64,000 nucleotides of DNA from a bacterium (GCA_021846685.1 JAJZWL010000001.1:71484-135483); one strand, 5' to 3'; positions 29,586 to 45,896 are shown, counted from the stretch's first letter. Notes: generated by a model not told the origin, from the sequence alone. Numbers and translations are program-made.

Positions 29586-29614
29586 TTGACAAAAACTATA
29601 GGATCTTATATAGT
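29586..29614 (+). promoter_or_regulatory. Sigma70-like promoter TTGACA-17-TATAGT upstream of hydrolase paralog A; near-identical to the promoter of paralog B
   Basis: GTCTTATTGACAAAAACTATAGG... versus GTCATTGACAAAAATTATAGG... on the minus strand at 45868-45896. Confidence 0.5.
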
Positions 29615-29646
29615 ATACTCAATTATTTTTAACCTACTTAAATATA

Positions 29647-30693
29647 ATGAGTGCAGAAGAAACAGATAAGCAAATAAAAGATTCTCTTGGAACTATATCT
29701 GGACATTTTAGAGAATTCAATAATAATGCACCTCATTTTTTAGTGGATGGTGAAAACAAAGAGAATATAGAGGAGCTTCTTCCAGAAATAAAATTTGATG
29801 AAGTTAGAGATGCAGAAACCGAACAAGTATATAGAATTTTTATCATTAATAAAGAGATGCTCGAAGAAGGAAAGGTACCTCTTGTTCTTACATTCCAATA
29901 TAATAAATATAATATAGGAATAGATGACCCCTATTCTCAAGAGTTAGCGCAAGTAATGGCTCAAGGAGGAAGGCCTATTATCGGAATAGAAAGTCCGTCA
30001 GTTGGAGGTTCTTCTGATATGACTAAAGCACAAGAAGATAACTTAAATGTAGGAAAGAAACCTTTTGAAGAGATATCAAGAAGTCAATTAAGAGCACTTT
30101 CTGGGGAAATTTATCACAAAAGTAATAAGGATAAAGAAATAGATTTCGGAGGATATTCTCAAGGGGCAATTAATGCTTTGAGTAACGCTGAAGTAGCAGA
30201 TGAATTTGATTTAAAAGTTAGAAATGTTGTTATGCTCGATCCACCAGGCATAACAGATCATACTGAAGGTAAAGGAAGGAAGTGGGCAATTGTTGGATTG
30301 GGCAGAGCAATGAGATCAGAAACTTCAAATCTAAGTTTTTATGGATTTGATGATAAAAAATATTCTATTTTAGCAAAAAGTCTATCAATTAAAAATGATG
30401 ATATTTTTTTAAGAAAAATGCAAATTTTATATTCTGCTGCTACAGGCAGAATAGTTCTTCCTGAAATTTTAAGATCAGTATTATCAAAACAACCTCAGAT
30501 AAAAATAACTTTTATAAACGGATCTGAAAGTAAAATTACATTAACTGAGGATAGAAAAAAATTATTTAGAGAGTTTAGTAATGATAAGAGAATAAGATGG
30601 ATAGTTCTTCCAGGAGATACTCATTCAGTAGGCGTGAATGTTAGAAGAATCGGATGGTTATTTAAATTTATAATGAAAGATCAACGTATGTGA
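29647..30693 (+). CDS. Alpha/beta-hydrolase-fold protein, paralog A (putative esterase/lipase)
   Basis: GxSxG nucleophile elbow FGGYSQGA, C-terminal LPGDTHSVG (catalytic His candidate). Shares REFNNNAP.FL.DG, FINGS.S and RIG motifs with the 44786-45844 product at about 35-40% identity. Confidence 0.5.
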   Translation: MSAEETDKQIKDSLGTISGHFREFNNNAPHFLVDGENKENIEELLPEIKFDEVRDAETEQVYRIFIINKEMLEEGKVPLVLTFQYNKYNIGIDDPYSQELAQVMAQGGRPIIGIESPSVGGSSDMTKAQEDNLNVGKKPFEEISRSQLRALSGEIYHKSNKDKEIDFGGYSQGAINALSNAEVADEFDLKVRNVVMLDPPGITDHTEGKGRKWAIVGLGRAMRSETSNLSFYGFDDKKYSILAKSLSIKNDDIFLRKMQILYSAATGRIVLPEILRSVLSKQPQIKITFINGSESKITLTEDRKKLFREFSNDKRIRWIVLPGDTHSVGVNVRRIGWLFKFIMKDQRM

Positions 30694-30798
30694 ATCACCA
30701 CAGTCTAGGTATAATACCTGATTATCTGATAATCTAGATTGTAGATAACTCCATTGAATATATAATCCATATAATAATGAGATTTATTCTTAATATGT

Positions 30799-30834
30799 AA
30801 TCGGAGGCGATACGCCTTATTTTAAACTATTTTA
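30799..30834 (-). repeat. Pseudo-tRNA-Ser 3'-end repeat, hairpin subtype (X1)
   Basis: ATCGGAGGCGATACGCCTTATTTTAAACTATTTT; its reverse complement reads AGTTTAAAATAAGGCGTATCGCCTCCGAT, resembling the T-arm/acceptor 3' end of tRNA-Ser(GCT). Confidence 0.55.
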
Positions 30835-30863
30835 TAAATGGATTACAAAATTAATTTATAAAT

Positions 30864-31931
30864 TTAAGCTGTAGGGTTAAAATAGTTTTCCACTGCAAAT
30901 CTGGATTGTTGCATAAATATATTTTTTAATAAACTTAAATTGTTTATTTCATAAAATACTAACATTGCTTCCCTATATTCATTAACATCTACATTTCTAA
31001 AAGATAATGGAAAAGAATTATGCGATAGTAGTAAAGCATTTGCAATAATTCTTCCTGTTCTTTTATTTCCATCCTCAAATGGTTGTATATATCCAATTAA
31101 TGGTATTGTAAGTAAAGCTTTTTCAAACACATTAGTTTTATTGTTAATAATTTTACAATATTGCTCTAATGCCTCTCTTATCTGAAAAACATTATCTAGT
31201 GGTTTATAGTTTGTTCCTGTTATTCTAACCAAACTATTTCTAATGTTTTTTGTCACACCCAAGTTGTCAATTAACAGTGAATGAATATGTTCAATTATTC
31301 CAACATTTAGTTCTATAAATTGGTCACCATTCTGTAATATGAATTCTAACGCTTTTTTGTGATTTATAATCATTATGGCCTCCTCTTTCTTTTTACCTTT
31401 TGCTTCTATACCGTCTTTTAAAAGAGTTTCAGTTTCAAGTAGAGTATATGTATTACCTTCCAAAACAGAAGATTTCCAGCTTATTTCAATTATTGCTCTT
31501 TCAAACTCTTTTTTTCGAATAACATCACTTAACTGTTTTACATTACCATTAAAATTTTCATTTAGAGTATTTAATTCAGATAATTCTTCCTTCGTCAATA
31601 TTTCATTTTGAACCAATGAAAATATATTACTATTGAATCTCTCTATAATTTCTCTATGATCAATATCTTTTTCATAATATTCCTTAGTATTTATATTCCT
31701 GAGTAAATTATATTTTATACTTAATCTATAACTAGTAGCTTTACCATTACCATGCTTCTCGATTAAATTTAAATTTAATAAATAAGACAGATCTCTATTT
31801 ACAGTCATGAAAGAGACTTCTTCATCAACAGTTTTTAAAAAATCAGTTATTTGAGATCTACCTAGCCACTTTTGAGTGGAAAGAATATTTAAAAGTTTGG
31901 ATTGTCTTTTATTTAATTTCATAATATTCAT
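30864..31931 (-). CDS. Fic/DOC-family protein with N-terminal wHTH
   Basis: Fic motif HPFEDGNKRTGRIIANALL (HPFx[DE]GNGR) and N-terminal HTH (SQITDFLKTVDEEVSFMTVNRDLSYLLNLNLIEK); 355 aa. Confidence 0.8.
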   Translation of the reverse strand: MNIMKLNKRQSKLLNILSTQKWLGRSQITDFLKTVDEEVSFMTVNRDLSYLLNLNLIEKHGNGKATSYRLSIKYNLLRNINTKEYYEKDIDHREIIERFNSNIFSLVQNEILTKEELSELNTLNENFNGNVKQLSDVIRKKEFERAIIEISWKSSVLEGNTYTLLETETLLKDGIEAKGKKKEEAIMIINHKKALEFILQNGDQFIELNVGIIEHIHSLLIDNLGVTKNIRNSLVRITGTNYKPLDNVFQIREALEQYCKIINNKTNVFEKALLTIPLIGYIQPFEDGNKRTGRIIANALLLSHNSFPLSFRNVDVNEYREAMLVFYEINNLSLLKNIFMQQSRFAVENYFNPTA

Positions 31932-32065
31932 AACATAATAGCAATATAATCATAACATTTCGTTACATATTTGTAAATAATATGTTACGTAAATATAGTG
32001 AATGGCAGTAAGGAAAGACTAAATTCGTAAGCTATATCAACATTGTATGGATATTTATAATGGGG

Positions 32066-32112
32066 TTGTCACATCAATCGGAGGCGATGCGCCTTATTTC
32101 GAACTATTTTTG
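32066..32112 (-). repeat. Pseudo-tRNA-Ser 3'-end repeat, hairpin subtype (X2)
   Basis: AATCGGAGGCGATGCGCCTTATTTCGAACTATTTTTGTGTTGG; its reverse complement AGTTCGAAATAAGGCGCATCGCCTCCGATTGATGTGACAACCCCAT parallels the tRNA-Ser(GCT) 3' end and its flank TGGATGCGACAAC. Confidence 0.6.
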
Positions 32113-32143
32113 TGTTGGCTCACTAAATTAATGGACATTTATT

Positions 32144-32440
32144 TCAATAAACTTGATTATGACTTCCAGTATCAACAAATACAAAGACAACATTATTTTC
32201 TTTCTCATAGTAGATAATCCTGCAATCTCCTGTTACTGAAAACGATCGGTACATTTTCAACTTTCCAGTTAATCGATGATCTTGTAGTATAGGGGTAAAA
32301 CGATCTTCTAAAAATAAATCAATGCGCTGTTGAACACGTTGTTCTAAATTTGTTTGATTGCTGATTCTTGCTTTAAAATGTTTAATAAAATCCTTTGTGT
32401 ATTCAATTCTCTTCTTCATCTTTGAAATTTCTAACTGCAT
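32144..32440 (-). CDS. RelE/ParE-family type II toxin
   Basis: 98 aa; IEYTKDFIKHFK...RIIYYEKENNVVFVFVDTGSHNQVY matches RelE/ParE; overlaps the upstream antitoxin gene. Confidence 0.7.
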   Translation of the reverse strand: MQLEISKMKKRIEYTKDFIKHFKARISNQTNLEQRVQQRIDLFLEDRFTPILQDHRLTGKLKMYRSFSVTGDCRIIYYEKENNVVFVFVDTGSHNQVY

Positions 32441-32729
32441 CTATAATGTTTTTCCCGGAATAGGCAGTATACAAATTGCCATTCTTGGTCTCTGCTTCTA
32501 TTTCTGCTCGTTTTTTATCTAGATATTCTTCAAATTCTGGAGAAATATGTTCATCAGCATGTGGAGAAGAAAGAGTAAGCTGAATGTCTCCTTTGGAAAA
32601 ACTCATAATAAATATCCTTATTACCTCTTGAAGAGAACTATAGCCATAATCATGGGCTACCTTTTCTGCCTGTTTTTTTACAGATTTATTAAGAGGAACT
32701 TGTATTTTAGCGTAATCTGTTTGAATCAT
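32403..32729 (-). CDS. Putative antitoxin partner of the RelE/ParE toxin
   Basis: 108 aa acidic protein immediately upstream and overlapping the toxin gene; family not assigned. Confidence 0.45.
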   Translation of the reverse strand: MIQTDYAKIQVPLNKSVKKQAEKVAHDYGYSSLQEVIRIFIMSFSKGDIQLTLSSPHADEHISPEFEEYLDKKRAEIEAETKNGNLYTAYSGKNIIDAVRNFKDEEEN

Positions 32730-32941
32730 AATTCTTTATTTATTATTTACTTTCATTATTATACCACTTTGATACTTTTTGTCAACATATTACATCTGTT
32801 CAGATTCTTATCAGGTTGAAAAATTAAAACATTAATGAATAATTTATTAAGCAAGAATAGAAACTTTAAACTGAAAAATGAATCCCTTTATCAAGATTAT
32901 TGCTTGGCTTATTGATTTTTGTATTATGTTGTCGCATCCAT

Positions 32942-33029
32942 CGGAGAGAGAGAGATTCGAACTCTCGCGAGGATTTCTCCTCCTAAGGGTTTAGCAAACC
33001 CTCCCCTTCAGCCACTTGGGTACCTCTCC
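32942..33029 (-). tRNA. tRNA-Ser (anticodon GCU)
   Basis: Minus-strand read GGAGAGGTACCCAAGTGGCTGAAGGGGAGGGTTTGCTAAACCCTTAGGAGGAGAAATCCTCGCGAGAGTTCGAATCTCTCTCTCTCCG. Anticodon loop TTGCTAA, long variable arm, T-loop TTCGAAT, no encoded CCA. Confidence 0.85.
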
Positions 33030-33078
33030 AAATATAATAAAGTATATCAAAAAATGAGTTTATATAAAAGTTAATTGT

Positions 33079-34011
33079 ATGTTGTATAATATATTATTAA
33101 TGAATAATAAAAATAAAATCTTAATATTTTTTCTTGTAGTTATAGTATATTTTTCTATATTAGTTTTAGTTTTTATACACTTTATAAATATTCCTGTAGT
33201 AGGGAACAAAGAAAGAAAGGTGGGCATAAATTCTAAGATAAATATAGTTGCATCTGTAAATTATTTCAATCCTTTTAATTTCAAAACTCAAAATTCATCA
33301 ATATCAAGTACCTCTTCAGGAAAGGTTATTCAGTCAAATATTGTTGCAAATTTTGCAAGTATAAAAAATGAGACAATTATCTACTTCGTGCATAAACAAT
33401 GGAAATATACAATAAACGCCACAAATACTCTATTTAAAAAGGATAATGTAATAGTTTATTATAAAAAAAATGGACATAATACTTTATTGGAAATATACAT
33501 ACCAAATAGCTTTAAAATATCTGACTTAGTATCATTATTTGATGTTAACTATAGTACCTATTCATATCCCTTTGACTATACTCAGATGAATGATACTTTG
33601 GCTTCTTTAGATACGACATATACTCCATATATAAGAAGTACTTCTTTTGTTTTTTATAAAAATAATTTCAATAATGTTGGTCATTTCCAGTACAACACAC
33701 CAATAGAAGAAATTAAGGGTGTCTCAATGATTAATACTTCTTCACAAGGGAGTATTAATAGTCTTCTACATGAGTATATGTCAAGGTTTTCTATATGGGG
33801 ATATATTCCTTTTACTGTATATGGAGCTATAATTGATAATAATACAATATATTATCTTAAGTATGGTTTAGGGGGTGCGAGTATAAAAGTTTTAGTTAAA
33901 CCTGAAAATGGATATTCTTTTGTATATTATAGTATAAAAGTCTCTGCTTCTTCTTCAAACAATAATTTATCCTTGTTTAATAGATTGGGATGGAGTAGTG
34001 TATTTAATTAA
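33079..34011 (+). CDS. Hypothetical membrane-anchored/secreted protein
   Basis: N-terminal signal-anchor ILIFFLVVIVYFSILVLVFIHFINIPVV; Asn/Ser/Tyr-rich ectodomain; no family. Confidence 0.35.
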   Translation: MLYNILLMNNKNKILIFFLVVIVYFSILVLVFIHFINIPVVGNKERKVGINSKINIVASVNYFNPFNFKTQNSSISSTSSGKVIQSNIVANFASIKNETIIYFVHKQWKYTINATNTLFKKDNVIVYYKKNGHNTLLEIYIPNSFKISDLVSLFDVNYSTYSYPFDYTQMNDTLASLDTTYTPYIRSTSFVFYKNNFNNVGHFQYNTPIEEIKGVSMINTSSQGSINSLLHEYMSRFSIWGYIPFTVYGAIIDNNTIYYLKYGLGGASIKVLVKPENGYSFVYYSIKVSASSSNNNLSLFNRLGWSSVFN

Positions 34012-35079
34012 GCTTTGAGAGTTTAATTTTATTTGTGTATACCAATTAGATAGGTTGTGGATTAAATCTTTATCCTTAGTATTTAATGCAATTTCAGATG
34101 TTCCAAATAATACTCCGAATGTTGAAAAGTTATGTGATCCTATTATTAAAGAAGAATTAGGGGCATTTTTATCTAAAATTATCATTTTTGCATGTATATA
34201 CTTTTCAGACTGCTCATATAAATTAGAAAGATTTATATTGCTTAAATTAAATAGTATTTGCTCTATTTTATGTCTAATTTTTTTTTCGGCAATACTATTT
34301 GAATGTACAATAATCTCAACTGCAAGACCTCTTTTAACGGCTTTCTGAAGTGCAAAAAGAATTTTAAAATCTGGTAGGAATTGAGATATATAGCTAATAT
34401 CTTCTTTCGCATTATTTATAGCATTAATGGCCTCATTATATATGATAGATTGTCCTTTTTTCCCAGAATCTATAAGAAGTGAATTTTCTTTATTAATATT
34501 GACTATCTTGTCACTATATTTTATTCCTGTACTGTTCTTTAAGAAGATACTTTTTAAATTATTTCTAATTTCTCTGTCTTTTGTTTTCACCATGAAGTCA
34601 TAATAATTAAAAGATTTTTTCCCAAAATTCATTCCACCTATATATGAATAATTATCAATTATAGTTATTTTCATATGATTTCTTCCTATAAAGGGGAAAT
34701 ATTCAGCTATAGCTTTATTATATCTATATTCATTGATAAAATTGATTTCAATATCAGCAGATGTCATTTCTTTGAAATATTTTTGACTTATTTGAATATT
34801 ATTTTTACATTTATCTCTTTTTTCTTTATTTATATGTATAAAATACTTGTGTCCTTGGATATATTGATTTGAGTAATTATCAATATTGAATTTAACTGAG
34901 ACCCCTCTTTTTTTAGCTGCTATAACTTCTTTTGTAAATTCTTTTAAAGAATCATCAAAATATACATACATTGCTTGTATATATATATTTTTTTTTGCCT
35001 TTTTAACAAGTTGAATAAGATCACTTAGATATTCTTCTGAAGGTATTAATTCATACATTACTAATATACAATATATCAA
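33967..35079 (-). CDS. Phospholipase D-family protein with two HKD motifs (cardiolipin-synthase-like, no TM)
   Basis: HMKITIIDNYSYIGGMNFG and HAKMIILDKNAPNSSLIIGSHNFS, i.e. two HxK(x4)D(x6)G(S/G)xN motifs. Confidence 0.75.
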   Translation of the reverse strand: MIYCILVMYELIPSEEYLSDLIQLVKKAKKNIYIQAMYVYFDDSLKEFTKEVIAAKKRGVSVKFNIDNYSNQYIQGHKYFIHINKEKRDKCKNNIQISQKYFKEMTSADIEINFINEYRYNKAIAEYFPFIGRNHMKITIIDNYSYIGGMNFGKKSFNYYDFMVKTKDREIRNNLKSIFLKNSTGIKYSDKIVNINKENSLLIDSGKKGQSIIYNEAINAINNAKEDISYISQFLPDFKILFALQKAVKRGLAVEIIVHSNSIAEKKIRHKIEQILFNLSNINLSNLYEQSEKYIHAKMIILDKNAPNSSLIIGSHNFSTFGVLFGTSEIALNTKDKDLIHNLSNWYTQIKLNSQSLIKYTTPSQSIKQG

Positions 35080-37853
35080 ATATTTTTATTATAATCAAAA
35101 CTTATTTTCCTTGTTATAAATTTCCTTATTTCTTCTGAGAATAATAATATGAATATTACTATAACATAAAGTAAGAGTATATTATATCTTAAAGGATATG
35201 TATGTAAGATTGTATTAAAAAAAGGTGTGAATATAAATATATTTTGGAATATAAGTATAAATATTATTCCTATAAAAATCTTAAAGTAAGATTTGAGTTG
35301 AAATGAAAAGATTGAGAATTTATATGACCTAGAGGACAGTAGGTTTGCTATTTGAGCAAAGACTAGAGTAGAGTATGTTGCTGTAGTTGCCATTTGATAA
35401 TTTCCAAATTCTTTAAATGTTATATAAAATATTATTACAGAAAGTATCGCAATAATTGATCCATTTATCATTATTGGTATTACTGTTTCTTTATCAAAAA
35501 GATGTGATTTCTTAGACCTAGGAGGTCTAGACATAATATCAGGATCTGGAGTGTCTGATGCTAGGATCAATGCTGGAATTATATTAACAATAAGGTCAAT
35601 TGTTAATATTTGTAGTACATACATGACAGGTTCGAAGTGTAAAATTGAACCAATAAAGATAGCAAGCATTTCTGCTATGTCTATAGCTACAGTAAATCGT
35701 ATGAATTTTTTAATATTATCATATATAATTCTCCCTTCTTTAATGGCATATACTATTGCAGAAAAACTATCATTAAGAAGGATCATGTCTGCACTTTCTT
35801 TTGCCACATCTGTTCCTGTAATTCCCATTGCCACACCTATATCTGCTGATTTTAAAGCAGGGGCATCATTAACCCCATCTCCTGTTACTGCTACTATATT
35901 ATCCATATCTTTTAGTAGTTGCACTATTTTAAGTTTATTTAATGGTGTTACTCTAGCAAAGATGGCTGTTTGTCCTTTTAAAATTTCTTTAATTTTTTCA
36001 TCACTTAATTTGTCAATATCTTTTCCTTCTATAACGGGAGTGTTTTTATCTGCTATATTTACTATCTGACCTATTTTAAGAGCTATATCAGGAGAGTCTC
36101 CTGTACACATAAATATCTTGATACCTGCTTTTTTTGCAGATTCAACTGCAGCAGGGACTTCATCTCTAGGTGAATCAAATATACCTAAGAGTCCAATTAT
36201 TGTGAGATTTTTTTCTACATCTTTTTTACTTACACTTTCATTACCATTTAATTTTCTGTATGCTAGTGCAATTACCCTTAAAGTACCATTCTCATATTGT
36301 TTCGCCTTTTCAATAATGGTATTTTTCAAATGTGTGTCCAATGTGATTTTTTTCCCATCCATTAAAATACTATTAGAAGAAGATATAATACTTTCAATTG
36401 CACCTTTCGAATATATATATTCGTTATTATCTTCATGTACCAATACAGACATCATTTTTCTTTGAGGGTCAAATGGAAGTTCTATAATTCTTTTAAATTT
36501 ATTTCGTATATTATCTGCATCTTTGTTTATCTTTCTAGCAAATGCTATTAAAGCTCCTTCTAATGGGTCTCCTATTAAATCATATTTATTTTTTTTAGGA
36601 TCAAAATTAATATATGAGTTATTACAAAGTATGGATCCTTTGAACATTAGATCCATTACATCCTGGTTATAGCTATTAGGGGTAATATCTCCTTTGTCTG
36701 TATATCCTACTCCAGATACAGAATAGTCTTGAGATTTTGCATTCATAAAGAAAAATTTTTCAACACTCATTTCATTTTTTGTAAGAGTCCCTGTTTTATC
36801 AGTTACAATTACATTACAAGCACCTAGTGTTTCTGTAGATGTTAATTTTTTAACTACTACATTTACTTTTGAAAGTTTTTTTAAAGCAATTGCAAGAGCT
36901 GCAGTGACAGTAGAGGGTAGACCTTCTGGGACTACTCCAACAGCAAGTCCTAAAGATAGTATTAATGTGGCTTGTACAGATAATTTAGAATAAAAAAAGT
37001 TGATAATAAAGGCAAAGAATGCCACTACTAAAGCAATCATAATAAGGTATTCACCTGTTCTGAAAATTTCTTTTTGTAGAGGAGATTTACCTTTTTTTTC
37101 TTCTTCCGTTGTTACTGCTATTTTTCCAAATTCAGTGTTCATTCCAGTTCCTACGACAACTGCTTTTCCTGACCCAGAAGATACTGTTGTCCCCATAAAT
37201 ATTAGATTAGATATTTCAAAAATCGAAAGTTTAGATTTTGGATGAGGTGATGTAGTTTTTAATACTGGTTTATTTTCTCCTGTAATTGAAGATTCTAAAC
37301 AAGAAAGGTTATTTGATTCAATTACTCTAGAGTCAGCAGGTATGTCGTCTCCTGCTTTTAGAATTATTATATCTCCAGGAACTACAAGTTGTGTATCGAT
37401 CTCAGTAATTGTCCCGTCTCTTATTACAGTGGTTTTTTTTGAAATTAGTTTTTCTAAAGACTCTACTGTCTTACTTGCACTATATTCTTGTAAAAACCCT
37501 ATTGTAGAGTTAAAGAGAATAAGTAATATTAATATGATCCCAACTATTTCTTGTTGAGTTAAGAATGCTGCAATAGCAGCAATCAATAGTAATAGCATTA
37601 AAAAATCTTTAAATTGAGAGAAATATATTCCAGAGACCTTTAATCTATTAGTAACTTTTAGCTCATTATAACCATGTTCAGTTATTAGCTCTTTTGCCTT
37701 TTCACTTTTAATCCCAGTATATTCATCTGTTTGTAATATTTTTAATACACTTTTTGTATCTAATGAATATACAAAAGTTTCTTCATCTAGTGTTTTTTTA
37801 AAGATAGAAGGGTATAATAGACTTGAGTATGTTTTATGTTTAATCTGGGACAT
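35076..37853 (-). CDS. P-type cation-transporting ATPase (P2-type, Ca2+/Mg2+-like)
   Basis: DKTGTLT phosphorylation motif, TGDGVNDAPALK hinge motif, TGE-like actuator region, about 10 TM helices; 925 aa. Confidence 0.85.
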   Translation of the reverse strand: MSQIKHKTYSSLLYPSIFKKTLDEETFVYSLDTKSVLKILQTDEYTGIKSEKAKELITEHGYNELKVTNRLKVSGIYFSQFKDFLMLLLLIAAIAAFLTQQEIVGIILILLILFNSTIGFLQEYSASKTVESLEKLISKKTTVIRDGTITEIDTQLVVPGDIIILKAGDDIPADSRVIESNNLSCLESSITGENKPVLKTTSPHPKSKLSIFEISNLIFMGTTVSSGSGKAVVVGTGMNTEFGKIAVTTEEEKKGKSPLQKEIFRTGEYLIMIALVVAFFAFIINFFYSKLSVQATLILSLGLAVGVVPEGLPSTVTAALAIALKKLSKVNVVVKKLTSTETLGACNVIVTDKTGTLTKNEMSVEKFFFMNAKSQDYSVSGVGYTDKGDITPNSYNQDVMDLMFKGSILCNNSYINFDPKKNKYDLIGDPLEGALIAFARKINKDADNIRNKFKRIIELPFDPQRKMMSVLVHEDNNEYIYSKGAIESIISSSNSILMDGKKITLDTHLKNTIIEKAKQYENGTLRVIALAYRKLNGNESVSKKDVEKNLTIIGLLGIFDSPRDEVPAAVESAKKAGIKIFMCTGDSPDIALKIGQIVNIADKNTPVIEGKDIDKLSDEKIKEILKGQTAIFARVTPLNKLKIVQLLKDMDNIVAVTGDGVNDAPALKSADIGVAMGITGTDVAKESADMILLNDSFSAIVYAIKEGRIIYDNIKKFIRFTVAIDIAEMLAIFIGSILHFEPVMYVLQILTIDLIVNIIPALILASDTPDPDIMSRPPRSKKSHLFDKETVIPIMINGSIIAILSVIIFYITFKEFGNYQMATTATYSTLVFAQIANLLSSRSYKFSIFSFQLKSYFKIFIGIIFILIFQNIFIFTPFFNTILHTYPLRYNILLLYVIVIFILLFSEEIRKFITRKISFDYNKNI

Positions 37854-38608: not shown

Positions 38609-38620
38609 AAGATAAATTAA

Positions 38621-38710
38621 GGAGAGATGCTGGAGTGGTTTATCAGGCTGTTCTCGAAAAACAGTATTCTTCTAAACAAAGGATCGTAAGTTCGAATCTT
38701 ACTCTCTCCG
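38621..38710 (+). tRNA. tRNA-Ser (anticodon CGA)
   Basis: GGAGAGATGCTGGAGTGG...CTGTTCTCGAAAAACAG...GTAAGTTCGAATCTTACTCTCTCCG; anticodon loop CTCGAAA, long variable arm. Confidence 0.8.
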
Positions 38711-38775
38711 ATTTTATTACTAAAGTTTAAATAAGATTTAATATATATATTCTATATGATGATAATGTATATCAT

Positions 38776-39030
38776 ATGAAAACTATGATTGTACAAGACA
38801 ATAAGATACTTAATGGTAAACCTATTATAAAAGGCACTAGGATGTCTGTTGAAATAATATTAGAACTTTTGTCATCAGGATTAGAAATTAATGATATTCT
38901 TAAAGAATATGAATATTTAAATAGAACTCAAGTTTTGTCTGCTATATCATATGCATCAAATTTGATGAAGAAGGAAGATACATATATATTCAATAATCAG
39001 AAAAGTGTTATAAAGGAAATTCCTAATTGA
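38776..39030 (+). CDS. DUF433-family protein (putative antitoxin of a DUF433/DUF5615 pair)
   Basis: GKPIIKGTRMSVEIILELLSSGLEINDILKEY matches the DUF433 core. Confidence 0.65.
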   Translation: MKTMIVQDNKILNGKPIIKGTRMSVEIILELLSSGLEINDILKEYEYLNRTQVLSAISYASNLMKKEDTYIFNNQKSVIKEIPN

Positions 39031-39373
39031 TGCAAATATTCCTAAATCTGTAATAGATTATTTAATAAATAATAATTTTGATGTTATTGATATTAAAAAG
39101 GTTAATATAACAATGTCAGATATAGATATTATTAAATTAGCTCAAAAAGAACAAAGAATAATCATCACATTAGATAAAGATTTTATAACTTTAATACAAT
39201 ATCCTAAATATCAAGTATCAACAATAGTTATAAGATTAAAAATTTTAAAATCAGAGAATATTATTTCCTATTTAGATGAACTTTTTGTTGTCAAACCATT
39301 AAGATTGAGAATGAAAATCCACAAAAACAGGAGAGTTTTCTATGGTCTTAATTGGTATCTTCATATAGGTTAA
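39014..39373 (+). pseudogene. DUF5615-family (PIN-like) gene lacking a canonical start and 3'-truncated by an IS3 insertion
   Basis: The frame open from 39014 reads ...LIDANIPKSVIDYLINNNFDVIDIKKVNITMSDIDIIKLAQKEQRIIITLDKDF, a full DUF5615 N-terminal motif. There is no ATG/GTG/TTG upstream of the internal Met at 39113, only an ATT at 39026. The reading frame runs into the IS left end at about 39306. Confidence 0.5.
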
Positions 39374-40099
39374 TTTCTCTGGTTTTATGTTTAAAGGATT
39401 AACAGGTATTTTTACTTTTTTATGTTCTTTAAGGTAATTTTCAAGCTTTTGTAAAGGTGTCTTGTACTTATTTGTTGAATGAGGTCTTTGCGTATTGTAG
39501 AAGTATGCCCATTCTCTAAATATATCTTGTATATTATCGTTAGAGAGTATAAATGATGCTAATCCTTCATATTTATCTGTTTTCCACGATCTTTCTATTA
39601 CCCCATTGTGTTCTGGTGTATATGCCTTTGTGTAAGAAAGGAGTACATTTAATCCATGTGCTAGATCTCTGTATGATGATGCTTTGTAACAGGATCCATT
39701 ATCCATGATTAAGGTTATTGGAAACGATATACATGTTTTTACAAGTTGTCTTAGTATTGCCTCTGATGTAATTGATCCTGAGAATGTTGATACTTCTAGT
39801 GCTACTATTTCTCTATTGAATATATCTATGACCTTAAATGCATAAACCCAACCTTTATTTATCCATAGATGTGTGAAATCAGTTTGAAATATTGATCTTG
39901 GGATATCACATTGAATCTTTTTATGATTAAATTCATATGTACCTTTTTCAGGTTTTCTTCCTATGATATTTTCTTCTTTCATGAAGTAATATACACCCCT
40001 ATATGATATTGTTTGGCCTCGTACTTTTAGATATGCTGTTATCATTAGATATCCCCATCCATACAACAAATCAAGCTCTTTTATTGCATTCTTATTCAC
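39299..40099 (-). CDS. IS3-family transposase OrfB (rve integrase core)
   Basis: DDE-region motifs QTDFTHL, IMDNGSCYKA, HNGVIERSWKT, NTQRPHS. The frame is open upstream to the slippery site, so it is expressed as an OrfAB fusion. Confidence 0.75.
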   Translation of the reverse strand: MNKNAIKELDLLYGWGYLMITAYLKVRGQTISYRGVYYFMKEENIIGRKPEKGTYEFNHKKIQCDIPRSIFQTDFTHLWINKGWVYAFKVIDIFNREIVALEVSTFSGSITSEAILRQLVKTCISFPITLIMDNGSCYKASSYRDLAHGLNVLLSYTKAYTPEHNGVIERSWKTDKYEGLASFILSNDNIQDIFREWAYFYNTQRPHSTNKYKTPLQKLENYLKEHKKVKIPVNPLNIKPEKLTYMKIPIKTIENSPVFVDFHSQS

Positions 40100-40254
40100 A
40101 TCAGGTAATTCTTCCCTTTTATTCTTTTTTTGAGAATAACCCTTTTTTTTGTAATATATTTTATTACAAGATATCCCTAAAAGTTTAATGATCTTTGTTA
40201 TCCTTATTCCATTTACACAAACCTCTAATATATCATCCCTAGTTACCTTCTTTA

Positions 40255-40533
40255 CTAAATCTTTTTTTTTAACACTGATAGAGCAGTTTGAGATTCTGCA
40301 AGTGCAAGTTTAGTATCTTCTAGATCTTGTTTTACCCTTACTAATTCTTGGTTATCAGACCTATCATCAGATAGTGCTTTATATGCATTGTTCAAAAACT
40401 TATCCTTAACCTTTAAAAAGTATGATACAGATATATCATATTTAGCAGAAATAGCTGAAAGAGATAATCTGTTACCTAAATGATCTAAAACCATGTTTGT
40501 TTTTTGTTCTGTTGTAAATTTTTTCATATTCAT
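40255..40533 (-). CDS. IS3-family transposase OrfA (HTH)
   Basis: 92 aa, ...LSLSAISAKYDISVSYFLKVKDKF... HTH and C-terminal leucine-zipper-like heptads; ends in KKKI at the slippery run. Confidence 0.7.
   Translation of the reverse strand: MNMKKFTTEQKTNMVLDHLGNRLSLSAISAKYDISVSYFLKVKDKFLNNAYKALSDDRSDNQELVRVKQDLEDTKLALAESQTALSVLKKKI
40262..40270 (-). other. Programmed -1 ribosomal frameshift site A_AAA_AAG joining orfA to orfB
   Basis: Minus-strand TTA AAA AAA AAG ATT TAG. Reading on in the -1 frame gives KKKDLVKKVTRDDILEVCVNGIRI... with no stop, continuous into OrfB. Confidence 0.6.
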
Positions 40534-40754
40534 ATTTTATCACCTCCTTATATATTTAATTGTAAAAGATCTAACGTTTGTGAATGAAAGTTTTAATTAA
40601 AAAACTCTCATTCACTTATTCTCATTTTACCTGTTGAAGTACATTTTTGAAAAACAAAATCAAAATTTATTAAATAATTCATTAACTATTATTAATAATG
40701 ATCAAGCAGATTCTTTTGAATTTGAATAATATTTAGATTTTTAATAATACAAAA

Positions 40755-40795
40755 AGTTCGAATATCGTCTACAGTCTCCCGATGGATGCGACAAC
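40755..40795 (+). repeat. Pseudo-tRNA-Ser 3'-end repeat (Y2) carrying the tRNA-Ser(GCT) downstream flank
   Basis: AGTTCGAATATCGTCTACAGTCTCCCGATGGATGCGACAAC; the last 15 nt are identical to the flank just 3' of the genuine tRNA-Ser(GCT) at 32927-32941. Confidence 0.65.
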
Positions 40796-40821
40796 ACTTG
40801 AGAAAGTGACTGAATATATTG

Positions 40822-40848
40822 TAGTTTCGAACTAAATAAGGTGTTCGA
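40822..40848 (+). repeat. Truncated hairpin-subtype pseudo-tRNA-Ser repeat (X4)
   Basis: AGTTTCGAACTAAATAAGGTGTTCGATG, related to X1-X3. Confidence 0.4.
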
Positions 40849-40958
40849 TGATAGAATTTTGAAGCCTTTATATGCCCTTATATGACAATAAATCTATATT
40901 ATAGGAGATTTTTGCTCGAACTCATACATATATTAAGATCGCCATTGACTATTTCACA

Positions 40959-41582
40959 ATGACCCCGTATAATGGGGGTATTATGAAACAGTTTAAAGAT
41001 GTAGAGAGATTAGAATACTTTGACCTAAAGACTTTAAAGAACTTTGTACCACTAGAGAGTAAATCCTTGTATAAACTGGTAAATAGGAGAGTAAAAGATC
41101 TGACTTTTATACAATTGAAAAAAGGATTATACACTACAAAAGCATTTATAGAAAATAATGATATGCTTTTATATAAAGAAAATATTGCAAATATTCTTAA
41201 AACTCCTTCATATATAAGCTTAGAGTATATGTTGTCAAAATACTCAATACTCACAGAAAGTGTATTCTCATTTACCTCTGTATCTACTAAGAAGACCAGA
41301 AGCTATATAAATACTTTAGGGACATATTCTTATAGAAATATCAAAGAAGATCTTTTTACAGGTTATGTAATAAGAAATAATATATATTATGCAACAAAGG
41401 CTAAATCGCTATTTGACTATATTTACTTTAAAAAAGAAGTATTAGAACTTGAGTCATTGAGATTAAACTTAGATGAATTTACTAAGTCAGATATAAAAGA
41501 ATTTAAAATATATTGCAAGAAATCTTCACGTATGCTTAAAATATATAATTTATTATTGAAATATAAAAAAAATGTTTATTGA
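40959..41582 (+). CDS. AbiEi-family antitoxin/regulator, copy 2
   Basis: 207 aa immediately upstream of and overlapping a DUF1814 toxin gene; same architecture as copy 1. Confidence 0.55.
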   Translation: MTPYNGGIMKQFKDVERLEYFDLKTLKNFVPLESKSLYKLVNRRVKDLTFIQLKKGLYTTKAFIENNDMLLYKENIANILKTPSYISLEYMLSKYSILTESVFSFTSVSTKKTRSYINTLGTYSYRNIKEDLFTGYVIRNNIYYATKAKSLFDYIYFKKEVLELESLRLNLDEFTKSDIKEFKIYCKKSSRMLKIYNLLLKYKKNVY

Positions 41583-42573
41583 AAAACTAAAACAAATAGT
41601 AAAGATGAAAAGTATAAAAAATCCGGAACTTCTAAGGGTTATTTTGAAGATGGAGCTTATTGAATATGTTTTACAGTATATTTATACGTCAAAATACCGT
41701 AATTTAATATTTAAAGGGGGAACATGTTTAAATATCTGTTATGATTTACCTAGACTTTCAGAAGATATAGATTTGGATTTTGTTAACGAGATAGATATAA
41801 GCTCATTAAGAGAAGATTTGATATCATATTTTAAAACTGAACTTGCATATGATAGGCTTTACGCCTCAGTAACAAATAATAATCAAACTATAACTTTAAA
41901 ATTTCCTGTTCTTAGGGATTTAGGTTTAGCAAATCAAAGCGAAAGTGATTTGTTATATATAAAACTTGATATACAAAAATCTCCATTCTTTAATATTACT
42001 ACTGACTTAGTTCCGAGAAAAAACTATGTAATTAAAGCTTATTCTCTTCCTCTGTTATTTACTGGGAAAGTAAATGCCATTTTTACTAGAAATAAGTTAG
42101 TTGGAAAAGAAAATAAATTTGTACCAAAAGGAAGAGATTATTTTGATTTACTTTGGTTTCTACAAAAAGGAATAAGACCAGATATTTCAATGCTTGAACA
42201 GGAACTGAATATATCTTCAAATATTGAATTTAAAGTTCGTTTAGATCAAAGAGTAATCGGTATGTTTACTAAATATAAGGATGAAATAATAAACGACCTA
42301 AAGCCATTTATTGAAAACACCGACATTCTTAATCAATTTGTAGAATCATTTTTACCATTATATTTAAAATATTCATTAGAGATTTTTGATTATAGAGTTC
42401 CTGATGAAGTATCAAGGCGAAATTATTTAATTGATGAGCTTAATTCTATTATAAAAGGGAAAAAGCTACAGGGCAAAGAAATTATGAAGGTTCTTAATGA
42501 TATGGATACTTATAAGAAAGGTTCTAACAATCTAGATATTCTAGGAATATACAATTATTTAATATCTTTATAG
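41572..42573 (+). CDS. AbiEii/AbiGii-family nucleotidyltransferase toxin, copy 2
   Basis: LIFKGGTCLNICYDLPRLSEDIDLDFV DUF1814 hallmark; 333 aa. Confidence 0.7.
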   Translation: MFIEKLKQIVKMKSIKNPELLRVILKMELIEYVLQYIYTSKYRNLIFKGGTCLNICYDLPRLSEDIDLDFVNEIDISSLREDLISYFKTELAYDRLYASVTNNNQTITLKFPVLRDLGLANQSESDLLYIKLDIQKSPFFNITTDLVPRKNYVIKAYSLPLLFTGKVNAIFTRNKLVGKENKFVPKGRDYFDLLWFLQKGIRPDISMLEQELNISSNIEFKVRLDQRVIGMFTKYKDEIINDLKPFIENTDILNQFVESFLPLYLKYSLEIFDYRVPDEVSRRNYLIDELNSIIKGKKLQGKEIMKVLNDMDTYKKGSNNLDILGIYNYLISL

Positions 42574-42656
42574 CTCCAGTAATAACTAATACTATTATTG
42601 GAATTTTATGGGTAATTATATTTAATAGATCTTTACTTGCATTATACATATATATT

Positions 42657-42845
42657 TCAGTAATTATTATTTGTCTGATCTTTTATATAATAAAGAATAT
42701 GAGTTTTACCAACTTGCCTTGCGCCATGCAAGACTATTATATTACTGTCATTGATATAACGCATTATATCCTCCACAATGTCTCTTTCTATTACCTTTGT
42801 ATTCATAGTCACGACAATATTGTAATACTCTAAAATTAGAGTCAA
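42657..42845 (-). pseudogene. N-terminal fragment of a P-loop ATPase (DUF4143/AAA-like)
   Basis: 62 aa ORF with IIVLHGARQVGKTHILYYI Walker A and nothing downstream; full-length relatives are about 400 aa. Confidence 0.5.
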
Positions 42846-42906
42846 TCTTGTTTTTAGAGTATTTTCTTAAGAGATTATTTATTATAGATTTTCATAAATT
42901 TTGCAA

Positions 42907-42949
42907 TCCAACACAAAAATAGTTCAAAATAAGGCATATCACCTCAGAT
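42907..42949 (+). repeat. Pseudo-tRNA-Ser 3'-end repeat, hairpin subtype (X3)
   Basis: CCAACACAAAAATAGTTCAAAATAAGGCATATCACCTCAGATT, the reverse complement of the X2 sequence with a few substitutions. Confidence 0.6.
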
Positions 42950-42962
42950 TTAATATGATGTA

Positions 42963-43955
42963 TTGAATTTTTATTATATAATTAAAGATATGGATTCAAT
43001 ATTATCTCCAATAAAAAAAGTTTTACCATTAATGACGAATGTTTTGATTGACGAAGAATCAATTTATAAATTTTCAATAAATATAGATAAATCATATCTT
43101 TTAAAATCTGAATATAATAAAGATACTTTGTTAGGCGAAAATTATGGAGAAGAAGAATATATAGCTTTTGTATTTGTATATAACAGTTTAAATTTTTCAT
43201 ACTGGGGATATCCTAAGTGGACTATAAATATACAAGGTAATAACTATGATGGAAGTGCAGCAATGATAAGAGCTATTAAGAGAGCAATCACAGAAGGACA
43301 TAATATATTAAATTCCAAATTCCTTATAAATTTAACAAAGAAACAATTAAGTGAAATATTTAGAGGAAATATAGAGATTCCCTTATTTAAAGAGAGATTA
43401 AAATTATTAAATATTCTTGGGGAATTGATAGAAAATAAATATCAAGGTTCATTTAAAAAATTTATTGATGAGGCAAAATGGGATGCAGAGTTGATAGTAG
43501 AAAAATTATCAAAAGAACTACCAGATATATTTAATGATACTAATATATATATAGGACAAAATATTAATTTTTATAAAAGAGCGCAATTAATACCAGCCCA
43601 TTTATATGATTTATATAATTTAAATATTATAAAATCTCCAATTTATAATATTGACAAATTAACAGCATTTGCTGATTATAAAGTTCCTCAATTAATGAGA
43701 AATTTAGGTATTATTAAATATTCATCTGATCTATCTTATAAAATTGATAATCTAATAGAGATACCAGCAGGGAGTAATGACGAGATAGAAATCAGAATAG
43801 CTACTATTTGGGCAATTGAATTGTGTACAAGGCAAATTAAAAAATATATTCCTCAAGTTACTTCAACACAAGTACATGGAGTTTTTTGGTTTTCAGGACA
43901 AAAATCTAATATTGAAATTAAGCCATATCATCGTACACGAACCATTTGGTATTAA
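42963..43955 (+). CDS. Queuosine-salvage-family protein (DUF2419/Qng1-like), tentative
   Basis: YNSLNFSYWGY and FADYKVPQLMRNLGII resemble conserved blocks of the Q_salvage family; 330 aa; start may be the internal Met at about 42990. Confidence 0.45.
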   Translation: MNFYYIIKDMDSILSPIKKVLPLMTNVLIDEESIYKFSINIDKSYLLKSEYNKDTLLGENYGEEEYIAFVFVYNSLNFSYWGYPKWTINIQGNNYDGSAAMIRAIKRAITEGHNILNSKFLINLTKKQLSEIFRGNIEIPLFKERLKLLNILGELIENKYQGSFKKFIDEAKWDAELIVEKLSKELPDIFNDTNIYIGQNINFYKRAQLIPAHLYDLYNLNIIKSPIYNIDKLTAFADYKVPQLMRNLGIIKYSSDLSYKIDNLIEIPAGSNDEIEIRIATIWAIELCTRQIKKYIPQVTSTQVHGVFWFSGQKSNIEIKPYHRTRTIWY

Positions 43956-43959
43956 TAAA

Positions 43960-43997
43960 AGTTCGATTCTCTCTCTCCGATGGATCCGACAACCCCA
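43960..43997 (+). repeat. Pseudo-tRNA-Ser 3'-end repeat (Y4), closest to the genuine tRNA-Ser(GCT) end
   Basis: AGTTCGATTCTCTCTCTCCGATGGATCCGACAACCCC versus genuine AGTTCGAATCTCTCTCTCTCCGATGGATGCGACAAC. Confidence 0.65.
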
Positions 43998-44166
43998 TTG
44001 CAAATGTCTATCAAATGTTGATACGTCGGGATGATTTATCAGTTATATTAATTGATAATAATTTTGGATTACAAAAATAATGAGATTAAAATGTTCCGGT
44101 ACTAATAGGTACTTGACAGTACTTCTGAGTGTAGTATAATATAAATTATAGTTTAGAAACATTCAT

Positions 44167-44427
44167 ATGGCTACAACAATACAGGTAAAATTAACATTAC
44201 CAAAAAAGATAAAGGATTATTATGATTCAAAAGCAGCAGAATTTGATATGCAAACTTCTACTTTCATAAAATATCTACTTATCAAGAATATTGAAGATGA
44301 GAGTATTCCAACATATCAAGCTTCTAAATATACAGAAAAATATATTACTAATGGGTTGCAAGAATATAAAACTGGAAAACTTAAAAAATTTACTAGTCAT
44401 AAAGATTTTATTAAAACGGTATCTTAA
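44167..44427 (+). CDS. Putative RHH-type antitoxin of a RelE/ParE pair
   Basis: 86 aa, 2-nt gap to the toxin gene; paralogous in architecture to 46933-47214. Confidence 0.45.
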   Translation: MATTIQVKLTLPKKIKDYYDSKAAEFDMQTSTFIKYLLIKNIEDESIPTYQASKYTEKYITNGLQEYKTGKLKKFTSHKDFIKTVS

Positions 44428-44429
44428 GG

Positions 44430-44702
44430 TTGATAATAAACTATTCATCAAAATTTACTAATCAGTATAAAGAGCTTATAAAAACTAATAAGAAACTTAC
44501 TCTCAAGGTTGATAAGAAGATAGGCTTTTTTATAAATAATCCTTATCATCCGTCATTAAGAACGCATAAAGTAAGTACAACTAAGGCGGGAGTAGCATTT
44601 TCATTTTGGGTGGCAGGAGATCTACGTATAATATTTACATGGGTAGGAAAAAATGAAGTACTATTTTTGCTAATAGGAAATCATAAAGAAGTTTATAAGT
44701 AG
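44430..44702 (+). CDS. RelE/ParE-superfamily type II toxin (YafQ/RelE-like)
   Basis: HPSLRTHKV...GDLRIIFTWVGKNEVLFLLIGNHKEVY; 90 aa; paralog of 47207-47482. Confidence 0.65.
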   Translation: MIINYSSKFTNQYKELIKTNKKLTLKVDKKIGFFINNPYHPSLRTHKVSTTKAGVAFSFWVAGDLRIIFTWVGKNEVLFLLIGNHKEVYK

Positions 44703-44785
44703 AAGTAATTTTTAAATTAAATATAAAATTTTTTATCTTTGGAATTTTGTTTAATCCTACAATCTTATATTGGGGGATATATTTA

Positions 44786-45844
44786 TTATTTTGTAGTTAA
44801 TCTATAGAGATTTCCAATCCGTTTAGCTCTTTCTCCTACTGCATGAGTATCTCCTGGGAGTATAATTCTTCTCACTCTAGATTGCATTCCTTGAGGAATG
44901 CTATTGTTTAAATCTTTAGAGGAGCTGATTGTACTTTTTGATCCATTTATGAAAATAACCCTCATATCAGGCTGACTTTCTAATGCTGATTTCAACATAT
45001 AGGGAACTATACGTCTTGACATTCCTGCAGGATAAGCAGTAAACATGCCTTTTCTTCTCATTGGTTTTAATACTAAATCTTTTCCTAATTTTGCATATGT
45101 TTTTACAGGATTTTTCTTATTATCAACACCACTAGCTTCTCTTTGTTTTTTGTCATGAGGGTCTTTTTCGTAAAAACTTAAGTTAGGGGCATCTGAAGCA
45201 AAAGCTTTCATTATTCCAATACTTGCTTTGGTTTTTTTTAATTTTTTTCTTTCAGTAAAATCTTTTACTCCTGGAATCTCAAGAGCAAATAAAGTTTTGA
45301 CTGTAAATCCAAAATCATCAGCTTGTTCTGCTAAACTTAAAGCTATAAGAGCTCCTTGAGAATAACCAGCCAAATCAATTTCACAAGTATTCCCAAGTAG
45401 AGGCTCTAATGCTCTATACATTGATTTAGATAATTGTGAAAAGGGATTATCATTTTCTCTTAAAGATTTTGCTTGTGTTCTAGTCATATCAGAAGACTCT
45501 CCTACAGAATGACTCTCCACTATTATAATGGGCTTAGATTCTGCTGCCATTTCTTGAGCTAGGTATAATATTGGTTTGTGTTCTATTCCTATATTATATT
45601 GTAATGTGAGTATTGTAGGGGTATCTCCTTTTTTTAATGCTTCCTCATTTAAGATAGCTACTCTTAATGTTTGTCTTGTTTCTGGGTCTTCAATTTCAGT
45701 ATAAGTAATAGGGGATTCAGATATATTTTTTGGATCTTTGCCATCAATTAAAAAAGAAGGAGCGTTATTGTTAAATTCCCTCAAATTCTGAGACGCAGAA
45801 TTGCTCCCAGTAGTATTTCCTTCTATAAATGTCTCTATTCCCAT
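44786..45844 (-). CDS. Alpha/beta-hydrolase-fold protein, paralog B
   Basis: LAGYSQGA nucleophile elbow, LPGDTHAVG; same motif set as the 29647-30693 product. Confidence 0.5.
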   Translation of the reverse strand: MGIETFIEGNTTGSNSASQNLREFNNNAPSFLIDGKDPKNISESPITYTEIEDPETRQTLRVAILNEEALKKGDTPTILTLQYNIGIEHKPILYLAQEMAAESKPIIIVESHSVGESSDMTRTQAKSLRENDNPFSQLSKSMYRALEPLLGNTCEIDLAGYSQGALIALSLAEQADDFGFTVKTLFALEIPGVKDFTERKKLKKTKASIGIMKAFASDAPNLSFYEKDPHDKKQREASGVDNKKNPVKTYAKLGKDLVLKPMRRKGMFTAYPAGMSRRIVPYMLKSALESQPDMRVIFINGSKSTISSSKDLNNSIPQGMQSRVRRIILPGDTHAVGERAKRIGNLYRLTTK

Positions 45845-45867
45845 AATATTTTTTAATATAAAAACAG

Positions 45868-45896
45868 ATTATATTCTAACCTATAATTTTTGTCAA
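45868..45896 (-). promoter_or_regulatory. Sigma70-like promoter TTGACA-17-TATAAT for hydrolase paralog B, conserved with the paralog A promoter
   Basis: Minus-strand GTCATTGACAAAAATTATAGGTTAGAATATAAT. Confidence 0.5.

Follow-up and report, generated by a model that had tools for sequence, protein, structure and literature searches.

A conserved promoter-spacer block shared by two diverged alpha/beta-hydrolase paralogues of a low-GC uncultured bacterium

Two diverged genes in a 64,000-nucleotide (nt) stretch of bacterial DNA (GCA_021846685.1, JAJZWL010000001.1:71484-135483; hereafter the window, with positions counted from its first letter) were found to share a short block in the spacer of their predicted promoters. 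The first gene, p1, is a 348-amino-acid (aa) alpha/beta-hydrolase open reading frame (ORF) at 29647-30693 on the + strand, assigned from its ORF, an AlphaFold2 (AF2) model and Foldseek, and the second, p2, is a 352-aa alpha/beta-hydrolase ORF at 44786-45844 on the - strand, assigned from its ORF and its BLASTP match to p1. It is very probable that p1 and p2 are paralogous alpha/beta-hydrolases whose promoter block was inherited and kept under purifying selection, and the finding is that of an uncharacterised member of a well-known superfamily with a phylogenetic footprint in its promoter spacer. The best explanation as a whole, which joins an old duplication of the hydrolase genes, an inherited promoter and a block that would serve as a shared regulator site, is given a probability of about 0.6.

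The products of p1 and p2 are identical at 142 of 349 positions (41%; BLASTP E 6e-78), and no third hydrolase copy was detected in the window by tblastn. An initial annotation, made from the sequence alone, had described the two as diverged paralogues retaining four blocks, and all four, REFNNNAP(H/S)FL(V/I)DG, GYSQGA, FINGS(E/K)S and LPGDTH(S/A)VG...RIG, are present in both products. Their coding sequences (CDS) agree at 57% of the nucleotides, at 48% of third codon positions and at 51% of four-fold degenerate sites, with a synonymous divergence (dS) of about 1.04, which is saturated, and the window is evenly AT-rich, with a G+C of 23-33%. The DNA around homologues was compared on contigs L001-L007, L043, L045 and L145, together with that around distant low-GC and high-GC members of the family. 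In a neighbour-joining (NJ) tree, p1 groups with P0002 (L006) and the L043 gene as subclade A and p2 groups with P0003 (L005) and P0004 (L001-L004) as subclade B, with L045/P0007 as the next branch and P0008 (L145) outside A, B and L045/P0007; the p1/p2 duplication is therefore older than the divergence of several metagenome-assembled genome (MAG) species. The ratio of nonsynonymous to synonymous divergence (dN/dS) is 0.15 between p1 and its 98% identical strain copy on L007 (P0001), 0.33 against L006 and 0.35 against L043; P0003 and P0004 give 0.25, and the flanking pentose-phosphate genes of the same two genomes give 0.06-0.14. The hydrolase genes are under purifying selection that is 2-4 times more relaxed than that on the flanking housekeeping genes, and no overall sign of positive selection was seen in the dN/dS comparisons (0.15-0.35). 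The assembly of p2, GCA_021843725.1, also has a very distant paralogue, P0074, adjoining ftsH.

The predicted promoter of p1 (29586-29614, +) reads TTGACA (29586-29591)-AAAACTATAGGATCTTA-TATAGT (29609-29614) and that of p2 (45868-45896, -) reads TTGACA (45896-45891)-AAAATTATAGGTTAGAA-TATAAT (45873-45868), with 11 of 12 and 12 of 12 positions matching the sigma-70 consensus, respectively, and both spacers are 17 nt long, in agreement with the distance stated in the initial annotation. The p1 spacer consists of the conserved block AAAACTATAGG (29592-29602, +) followed by the variable ATCTTA, and the p2 spacer of the block AAAATTATAGG (45890-45880, -) followed by the variable TTAGAA. The shared core ATTGACAAAAAYTATAGG is identical at 17 of 18 positions between the two promoters and gives the one significant blastn hit (E 5e-4) when the 400-nt regions upstream of the genes are compared; allowing at most 3 mismatches it occurs at 3 sites in the window, whereas 0.55 would be expected, and the same block stands before relatives in other genomes. 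Counted otherwise, a 17-mer core agrees at 16 of 17 positions and the stretch from the -35 to the -10 box at 23 of 29, and the six spacer bases adjoining the -10 box and the 5' untranslated regions (UTRs) are not conserved between p1 and p2. The earlier statement that the promoter core is kept far better than the coding sequence is borne out by these values beside the CDS identity and dS given above. The core had been put at 25 bp; the part corresponding to ATTGACAAAAAYTATAGG stands, and the upstream GTC(TT/-)A does not, as it needs a gap and is unconserved in orthologues.

Several other features that could underlie the conserved stretch were considered and rejected. The -10 box lies 32 nt from the ATG in p1 and 23 nt in p2, and both UTRs are short, contain no Shine-Dalgarno motif and fold no better than shuffled sequence; an RNA element in the 5' UTR was ruled out by this comparison and by Rfam, which detected only tRNAs in the window. 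An upstream small ORF, MKLITFRLIDKNYRILYSILNYF (29561-29632, +; 23 codons, AGGAGG-N4-ATG), overlaps the p1 promoter, its perfect AGGAGG being rare in a genome where most genes have no Shine-Dalgarno motif. It is kept in L007 with one extra in-frame codon and two synonymous changes, and its frame is lost in L006 and p2; in p2 and L006 the block falls in a different reading frame, so that peptide coding cannot account for the conservation. A divergent promoter on the opposite strand was also discarded, since on manual reading the reverse complement of TATAGT has a TTGAGT partner in p1 only, and not in p2 or L006. The resemblance of CTATAGG to the T7/SP6 initiation region was treated as coincidence, the upstream specificity region being mismatched.

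Comparison with other genomes showed that the block precedes relatives of p1 and p2 at a wide range of divergence. The sequence TTGACAAAAACTATAGG stands upstream of the homologues on L007 (98% protein identity to p1), L006 (75%) and L043 (59%), matching p1 at 17 of 17 positions in each case, and the p2 core is one base off that of p1, having the TTATAGG variant also seen in P0008. The L005 gene (44% to p1) has its own promoter, TTGGCAAAAACTATAAG-N6-TATAAA, 178 nt after rpe, and P0008 on L145 (about 32% to p1) is preceded by TTGATTAATATTATAGG-N6-TAAAAT, that is, TTGATT-AATA-TTATAGG-TTATGA-TAAAAT. The gene on L001-L004 (44% to p1) begins 48 nt after rpe, where the -35 box is lost and CTATAAG-N6-TATACT is left. 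The block was not found at L045, where TTGACA-N17-TATTAT has an unrelated spacer, nor upstream of the distant low-GC paralogues P0046, P0074 and P0044 or of the high-GC members. The consensus of the seven anchored family promoters is TTGAca-AAaA-cTATAgG-aT.t..-TAtA.T, and the motif-bearing genes form one clade in the NJ tree with a single loss in L045. As an additional observation, the TAAAAT box of P0008 (L145 3960-4003) lies only 7 nt before the ATG, as against 23-36 nt in other members, and its mRNA is therefore probably leaderless.

In this way, the block is found at the same position in at least five other genomes, before proteins of 32-75% identity, and it was accordingly already there in the ancestor of a clade that covers about 32-100% protein identity. 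It was kept while synonymous sites were randomised, as were the UTRs, the DNA upstream and the remaining spacer, which argues for purifying selection on a cis element, and it outlasted a duplication and several speciations, which argues that this cis element is functional. Gene conversion restricted to the 5' region, offered in the initial annotation as a second explanation, is contradicted by the same comparison: the p1 core is identical at 17 of 17 positions to those of L006 and L043, the p2 core is one base off and the flanks have diverged, a pattern of inheritance and purifying selection and not of homogenisation within a genome.

A third copy of the block was detected upstream of an unrelated gene in the window. 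It reads TTGACAAAAACTATAAG, with a weak -10-like AAGAAT 18 nt further on (10075-10109, -; the block itself at 10093-10109, -), and it precedes an ORF at 9071-10048 (-) for a 325-aa protein whose C-terminal part is an SLT lytic-transglycosylase domain (Pfam PF01464, E 4.7e-10). This site shares the whole block, unlike the toxin-antitoxin sites described below, and the block before the SLT gene is unchanged in a strain with a 93% identical protein, where the DNA just upstream of the block varies. Judged from the sequence, co-regulation of the SLT gene with the hydrolases is possible. Downstream of the SLT gene in a related strain (L144 4036-6966) lies a very large ORF, exceeding 1400 aa, in which Pfam recognises MPN635_N, a domain family named after a Mycoplasma pneumoniae protein.

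The specificity of the block differs along its length. The sequence TTGACAAAAA occurs in 5 copies in the window, as against about 0.7 expected from composition by our own estimate, and every copy lies upstream of an ORF on the same strand, namely p1, p2, two toxin-antitoxin modules and the SLT-domain ORF; four of the 5 copies continue with CTA or GTA. What is particular to the hydrolase genes is YTATARG, with 6 nt separating it from the -10 box downstream; of the 7 positions of CTATAGG, only 3 are matched in the two toxin-antitoxin promoters. Other strong promoters of the form TTGAC(A/T)-N16-18-TAnn(A/T)T in the same genomes have unrelated spacers. Within about 152 kb of lineage DNA, YTATAGG-N6-TAnnnT occurs 7 times, five of these being family promoters, and the looser YTATARG pattern is about 2-fold above Markov expectation. 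The two toxin-antitoxin promoters (46879-46907, +, and 32785-32758, -), with their modules at 46933-47482 (YafQ/RelE-like) and 32729-32144, diverge after (C/G)TA and have TG just before the -10 box. A further promoter, TTGACATTTTCTATGGGGTGTAATAATAT (45952-45980, +), stands back-to-back with that of p2 and has a T-tract replacing the A-tract of the block; its sequence TTGACATTTTCTATGGGG resembles the hydrolase block. It precedes a 196-aa ORF (46010-46600, +) with no Pfam, NCBIfam, PADLOC or PHROGs match, and the pair of this gene and p2 is kept in all strain variants retrieved.

According to the explanation favoured here, p1 and p2 are genes derived from an ancient duplication and, as predicted, separately transcribed, each near-consensus sigma-70-type promoter descends from the promoter of the ancestral gene, and AAAA-YTATARG, right after the -35 box at about -29 to -19, has been held constant by purifying selection. 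The block would then be the binding site of a trans-acting regulator, which would give a common transcriptional input to the paralogues and possibly also to the SLT gene. Shared regulatory input had been proposed in the initial annotation and is still a live explanation. Binding by a regulator, taken alone, comes a little short of an even chance and is slightly favoured over a spacer element read by RNA polymerase, as the block is family-specific, is not seen in other strong promoters and recurs a third time ahead of an unrelated gene, which would suggest a regulon-type site rather than a generic polymerase contact. Operators recognised by phylogenetic footprinting resemble the present case in that a short non-coding block is kept beyond neutral sites in paralogues and orthologues and recurs before an unrelated gene, and differ from it in that neither a palindrome nor a direct repeat is present in the block and at most three genes of the window would make up the regulon.

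Several observations weigh against this explanation. No regulator gene is conserved beside the hydrolase genes in the loci compared, and the block contains no convincing dyad; an operator of the form ACTATA-N8-TATAGT was rejected, as the inverted repeat occurs in only 3 of the 7 promoters, fitting p1, L006 and p2 (with an apparent compensatory change in p2) and being broken in L043, L005 and L001. The two toxin-antitoxin promoters (46879, +, and 32785, -) also carry TTGACAAAAA(C/G)TA, so the match is in part due to a promoter flavour that this genome has, and some of the block may represent an optimum common to promoters in general. In addition, the exact 17-mer followed by TATA at the right distance was found in 35 metagenomic contigs, representing about 20 distinct sequences with a G+C of 0.20-0.56; in no case does it precede a family member, and unrelated genes stand behind it instead. 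Viral contigs gave 44 distinct 17-mer matches, about the chance frequency, with a -10 box at the right distance in 5 of the 44. A widespread conserved motif was rejected on these grounds, the metagenomic and viral counts being near the composition expectation, and the block appears to be a family-associated element of one lineage and not a universal motif.

The rival that survives best is that the block is an intrinsic element read by RNA polymerase through a spacer contact or A-tract DNA shape, with no dedicated regulator, and is kept for a particular promoter strength, which we consider possible, though rather unlikely. The Z-element is a promoter-spacer element recognised via the RNA polymerase beta-prime zipper, was mapped to -24 to -18 and can substitute for the -35 box (Yuzenkova et al. 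2011, PMC3173786), and sigma-70 is reported to sense the promoter spacer near -18, the spacer sequence affecting the activity of sigma-70 promoters (PMC3130263). The block is likewise located within the -35/-10 spacer, is contiguous with the -35 box and overlaps the Z-element window, and the replacement of a -35 box fits L001, where CTATAAG-N6-TATACT is kept with no recognisable -35. The missing dyad symmetry and the presence of TTGACAAAAA(C/G)TA at other strong promoters of the window also agree with an intrinsic element. However, positions -22 to -18 read TAGGA, TAGGT or TAAGA, whereas the reported Z-elements read AACCT or AACAT, and the block, with its YTATARG, extends to -29 with an A-tract. 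It is limited to one gene family and not spread among strong promoters, and its absence from other near-consensus promoters of the same genomes is unexpected for a general contact; the reported Z-element effects of about 2-fold are moreover a weak basis for strict conservation.

Far less probable is a similarity without function, arising by chance agreement of TTGACAAAAA-type promoters in an AT-rich genome or by a short recent gene conversion. Chance would agree with the five window copies of TTGACAAAAA and the CTA or GTA next to four of them, with the viral 17-mer frequency and the few -10 boxes there, and with the unrelated metagenomic sequences that have the block and TATA, but it is opposed by the recurrence of the block at one position before relatives in at least five other genomes, by 10 of 11 spacer matches at about 50% neutral identity (p about 0.006 for one pair by our own calculation) and by the weak match of the toxin-antitoxin promoters to CTATAGG. 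Conversion is opposed by the p1 core, which equals the cores of orthologues and not that of p2, and by the unrelated flanks on both sides. Both forms of this alternative are already largely refuted by the orthologue comparison.

Regarding the proteins, the family is small. Only five close clusters were found among 5.8 billion proteins searched, and a profile search of 1.84 billion representatives gave 105 at E<=0.001. No Pfam match was detected for p1 at E<=0.1, and p2 matches Thioesterase at 18.1 bits (cut-off 26.4) and Palm_thioest at 17.3 bits (cut-off 26.8), both at the nucleophile elbow; an NCBIfam scan up to E 1 gave nothing for p1 and only a MenH model for p2 (E 0.13), and phmmer found no match for p1 among PDB sequences. 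Pfam Abhydrolase_1 (PF00561) is matched at E<0.01 by 41 of 53 aligned family members, and the family profile matches solved alpha/beta hydrolases in the PDB. As p1 and p2 themselves lie below the Pfam gathering threshold, their membership of the superfamily is transitive, via relatives and the family profile. The AF2 model of p1 (m047b780ef48b), built from the 53-sequence alignment, has a predicted local distance difference test score (pLDDT) of 87.4 and a predicted template-modelling score (pTM) of 0.88, with the canonical core order of strands and helices, over which residues 204-281 or so form a helical cap. A structural search with a predicted model had been recommended in the initial annotation, and Foldseek against the PDB gave 1044 matches at E<=0.001, the best 50 of the 1044 all being enzymes of the alpha/beta-hydrolase fold. 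The matches, at 11-16% identity, include generic cap-bearing esterases, thioesterases, C-C hydrolases and one phospholipase A; the best are CurM thioesterase 3qit, Pyrococcus esterase Pf2001 5lcn, Chloroflexus hydrolase 7qjm and phospholipase A PlaF 6i8w.

The nucleophile elbow G169-Y-S171-Q-G173 ends the strand at residues 164-170, with S171 in 53 of 53 members and G173 in 52; H326, after the strand at residues 316-321, is likewise present in all 53, and D/E198, the sole conserved acid, in 51 of 53, where it follows beta6 and not beta7. S122, Q129 and S295 are nearly invariant among family members. From the conservation of these columns, the predicted residues are Ser171 (30157-30159), Asp198 (30238-30240) and His326 (30622-30624) in p1 (+) and Ser162 (45359-45361), Glu189 (45278-45280) and His334 (44843-44845) in p2 (-), and the catalytic set likely consists of the Ser of G-Y-S-Q-G, the His of G-D-T-H and the Asp/Glu after beta6. 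The assignment of alpha/beta-hydrolases with a GYSQG elbow made in the initial annotation is in accordance with the family matches, the model and the invariant serine. On this modelling, p1 and p2 are placed as predicted serine hydrolases of a small, lineage-restricted and uncharacterised branch of the alpha/beta-hydrolase (Abhydrolase_1-like) superfamily, whose substrate is presumably an ester or thioester. Neither a signal peptide nor a membrane segment was detected, the N-termini being hydrophilic and the maximum Kyte-Doolittle value over 19 residues below 1.6 in all of the 25 members examined, and the enzymes are probably cytoplasmic as judged from sequence.

Like Abhydrolase_1/Abhydrolase_6 enzymes, the p1 family has an eight-strand core with a helical lid after beta6, a G-x-S-x-G elbow after beta5, a His after beta8 and a (D/E)-x-P-(G/S)-x-G-x-S-D motif after beta4. 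It differs from them in that the beta7 loop has a conserved Ser and the acid follows beta6 instead, in that no H-G oxyanion motif follows beta3, and in a family-specific N-terminus, (R/E)FN(N/L)N..G.NP or REFNNNAP.F..DG, the motif (R/E)FN(L/N)N..G.NP being common to all members examined. Members of the p2 cluster are automatically named pimeloyl-ACP methyl ester carboxylesterase (BioH) in IMG, and p1 and p2 do belong to the same superfamily and are of comparable size; unlike BioH, they have no match to a BioH model in NCBIfam even to E 1, and biotin genes adjoin none of the examined loci, so this source annotation was not adopted.

Differential genomic contexts were observed for the family members. 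The neighbours of p1 are a helix-turn-helix (HTH)/phosphoribosyltransferase (PRTase) gene and a Fic gene; the former (28312-29292, +) encodes 326 aa with an N-terminal winged helix and a C-terminal PRTase (PADLOC PsyrT E 5.5e-14, ShosT weak) and the latter (30864-31931, -) a Fic-domain protein (PADLOC SoFic/PDC-S04 E 2e-19). These flanking genes look like stand-alone defence or toxin genes, and the same trio occurs in the 98%-identical contig L007. The neighbours of p2 are a ParE/YafQ-type toxin-antitoxin pair and the 196-aa ORF. The surrounding 26-51 kb contain two AbiE pairs, further toxin-antitoxin modules, an insertion sequence (IS), four tRNA genes, a PLD-family gene and a P-type ATPase. 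Among these, the two AbiEi/AbiEii-like pairs (26727-28066, -, and 40959-42573, +) lie in one 15-kb stretch, the IS comprises an rve integrase (39299-40099) and a 92-aa ORF (40255-40533), with a DUF433/DUF5615 pair at 38776-39373, and the tRNA genes, three for tRNA-Ser and one for tRNA-Arg, are at 32941, 38534, 38621 and 46693. A queuosine-salvage gene (Pfam Q_salvage, E 3.5e-68; 42963-43955, +) is also found within this variable region, whose gene order differs from that of L007, indicating that the region is rearranging. Of the relatives of the hydrolases, some follow rpe in the gap that separates two pentose-phosphate operons, and others adjoin a class-I tRNA synthetase gene or the L31 and RF1 genes, and from these core contexts the island is not a defining feature of the family. 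The initial annotation had spoken of a family evolving fast in an island, of which the island, rich in toxin-antitoxin, AbiE and Fic genes, was confirmed, and the fast evolution was not, in view of the dN/dS values and the core contexts of relatives. An effector or immunity-associated role, also suggested there, found no backing: p1, p2 and the 196-aa ORF have no PADLOC or PHROGs match at E<=0.01, on which ground a defence or phage role of the hydrolases was rejected, the proteins have no export signal as stated above, and no secretion or partner gene is conserved beside family members in the loci compared.

It is most improbable that the hydrolase serves the oxidative pentose-phosphate pathway as a non-orthologous 6-phosphogluconolactonase, for although lactone hydrolysis is chemically feasible for a serine alpha/beta-hydrolase and the subclade-B gene of two related genomes (L001-L005) lies between rpe, the end of the 6PGD-transaldolase-rpiB-rpe operon, and the zwf-pgi operon, in a pentose-phosphate cluster with no recognisable lactonase gene, this context occurs in one lineage only (flanking genes 79-92% identical), no pentose-phosphate genes lie near p1, p2, L006, L043 or L045, the L005 gene has its own promoter well behind rpe, a site between convergent operons is a common landing place for accessory genes, and a Cyclase-family hydrolase gene, which overlaps the start of 6PGD, is an equally good candidate or a better one. 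The cluster itself (L001 6699-14200, L005 521-8529) comprises the Cyclase-family hydrolase, a short 6PGD, transaldolase, RpiB and Rpe, convergent with G6PD and PGI, and the Cyclase-family (PF04199) gene, a candidate for the absent lactonase, overlaps the 6PGD start by 8 nt. Concerning the host, the S5 and L15 genes (62052-62973, +) stand only one base apart and lack an L30 gene between them, and type IV pilus genes occur on related contigs. The order S5-L15 without L30 is typical of Candidate Phyla Radiation (CPR)/Patescibacteria, though not exclusive to them, and together with the pilus genes it is consistent with a CPR/Patescibacteria-like host.

In most respects the case is an ordinary one, in which paralogues inherit a promoter and generic alpha/beta-hydrolases are common in any genome, and current understanding is unchallenged. 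The hydrolase family, with no dedicated Pfam model and about 100 representative clusters among 1.8 billion, seems important enough to its hosts for an expression signal to be kept through duplication and speciation. To our knowledge, almost no cis-regulatory elements are known for this group of uncultured reduced-genome bacteria, and should the block prove to be a true regulatory site, it would offer a testable handle on transcription control in them. More speculative, and in our view doubtful, is the idea that TTGACAAAAAYTATARG with YTATARG 6 nt before the -10 box is the operator of a new lineage-specific input, governing a mini-regulon of hydrolase and lytic transglycosylase. If this were true, the mini-regulon could serve to remodel the envelope or lipids in an organism unable to make its own lipids, and TTGACAAAAAYTATARG would be among the first defined cis-regulatory elements in these low-GC, probably CPR/Patescibacteria-like uncultured bacteria.

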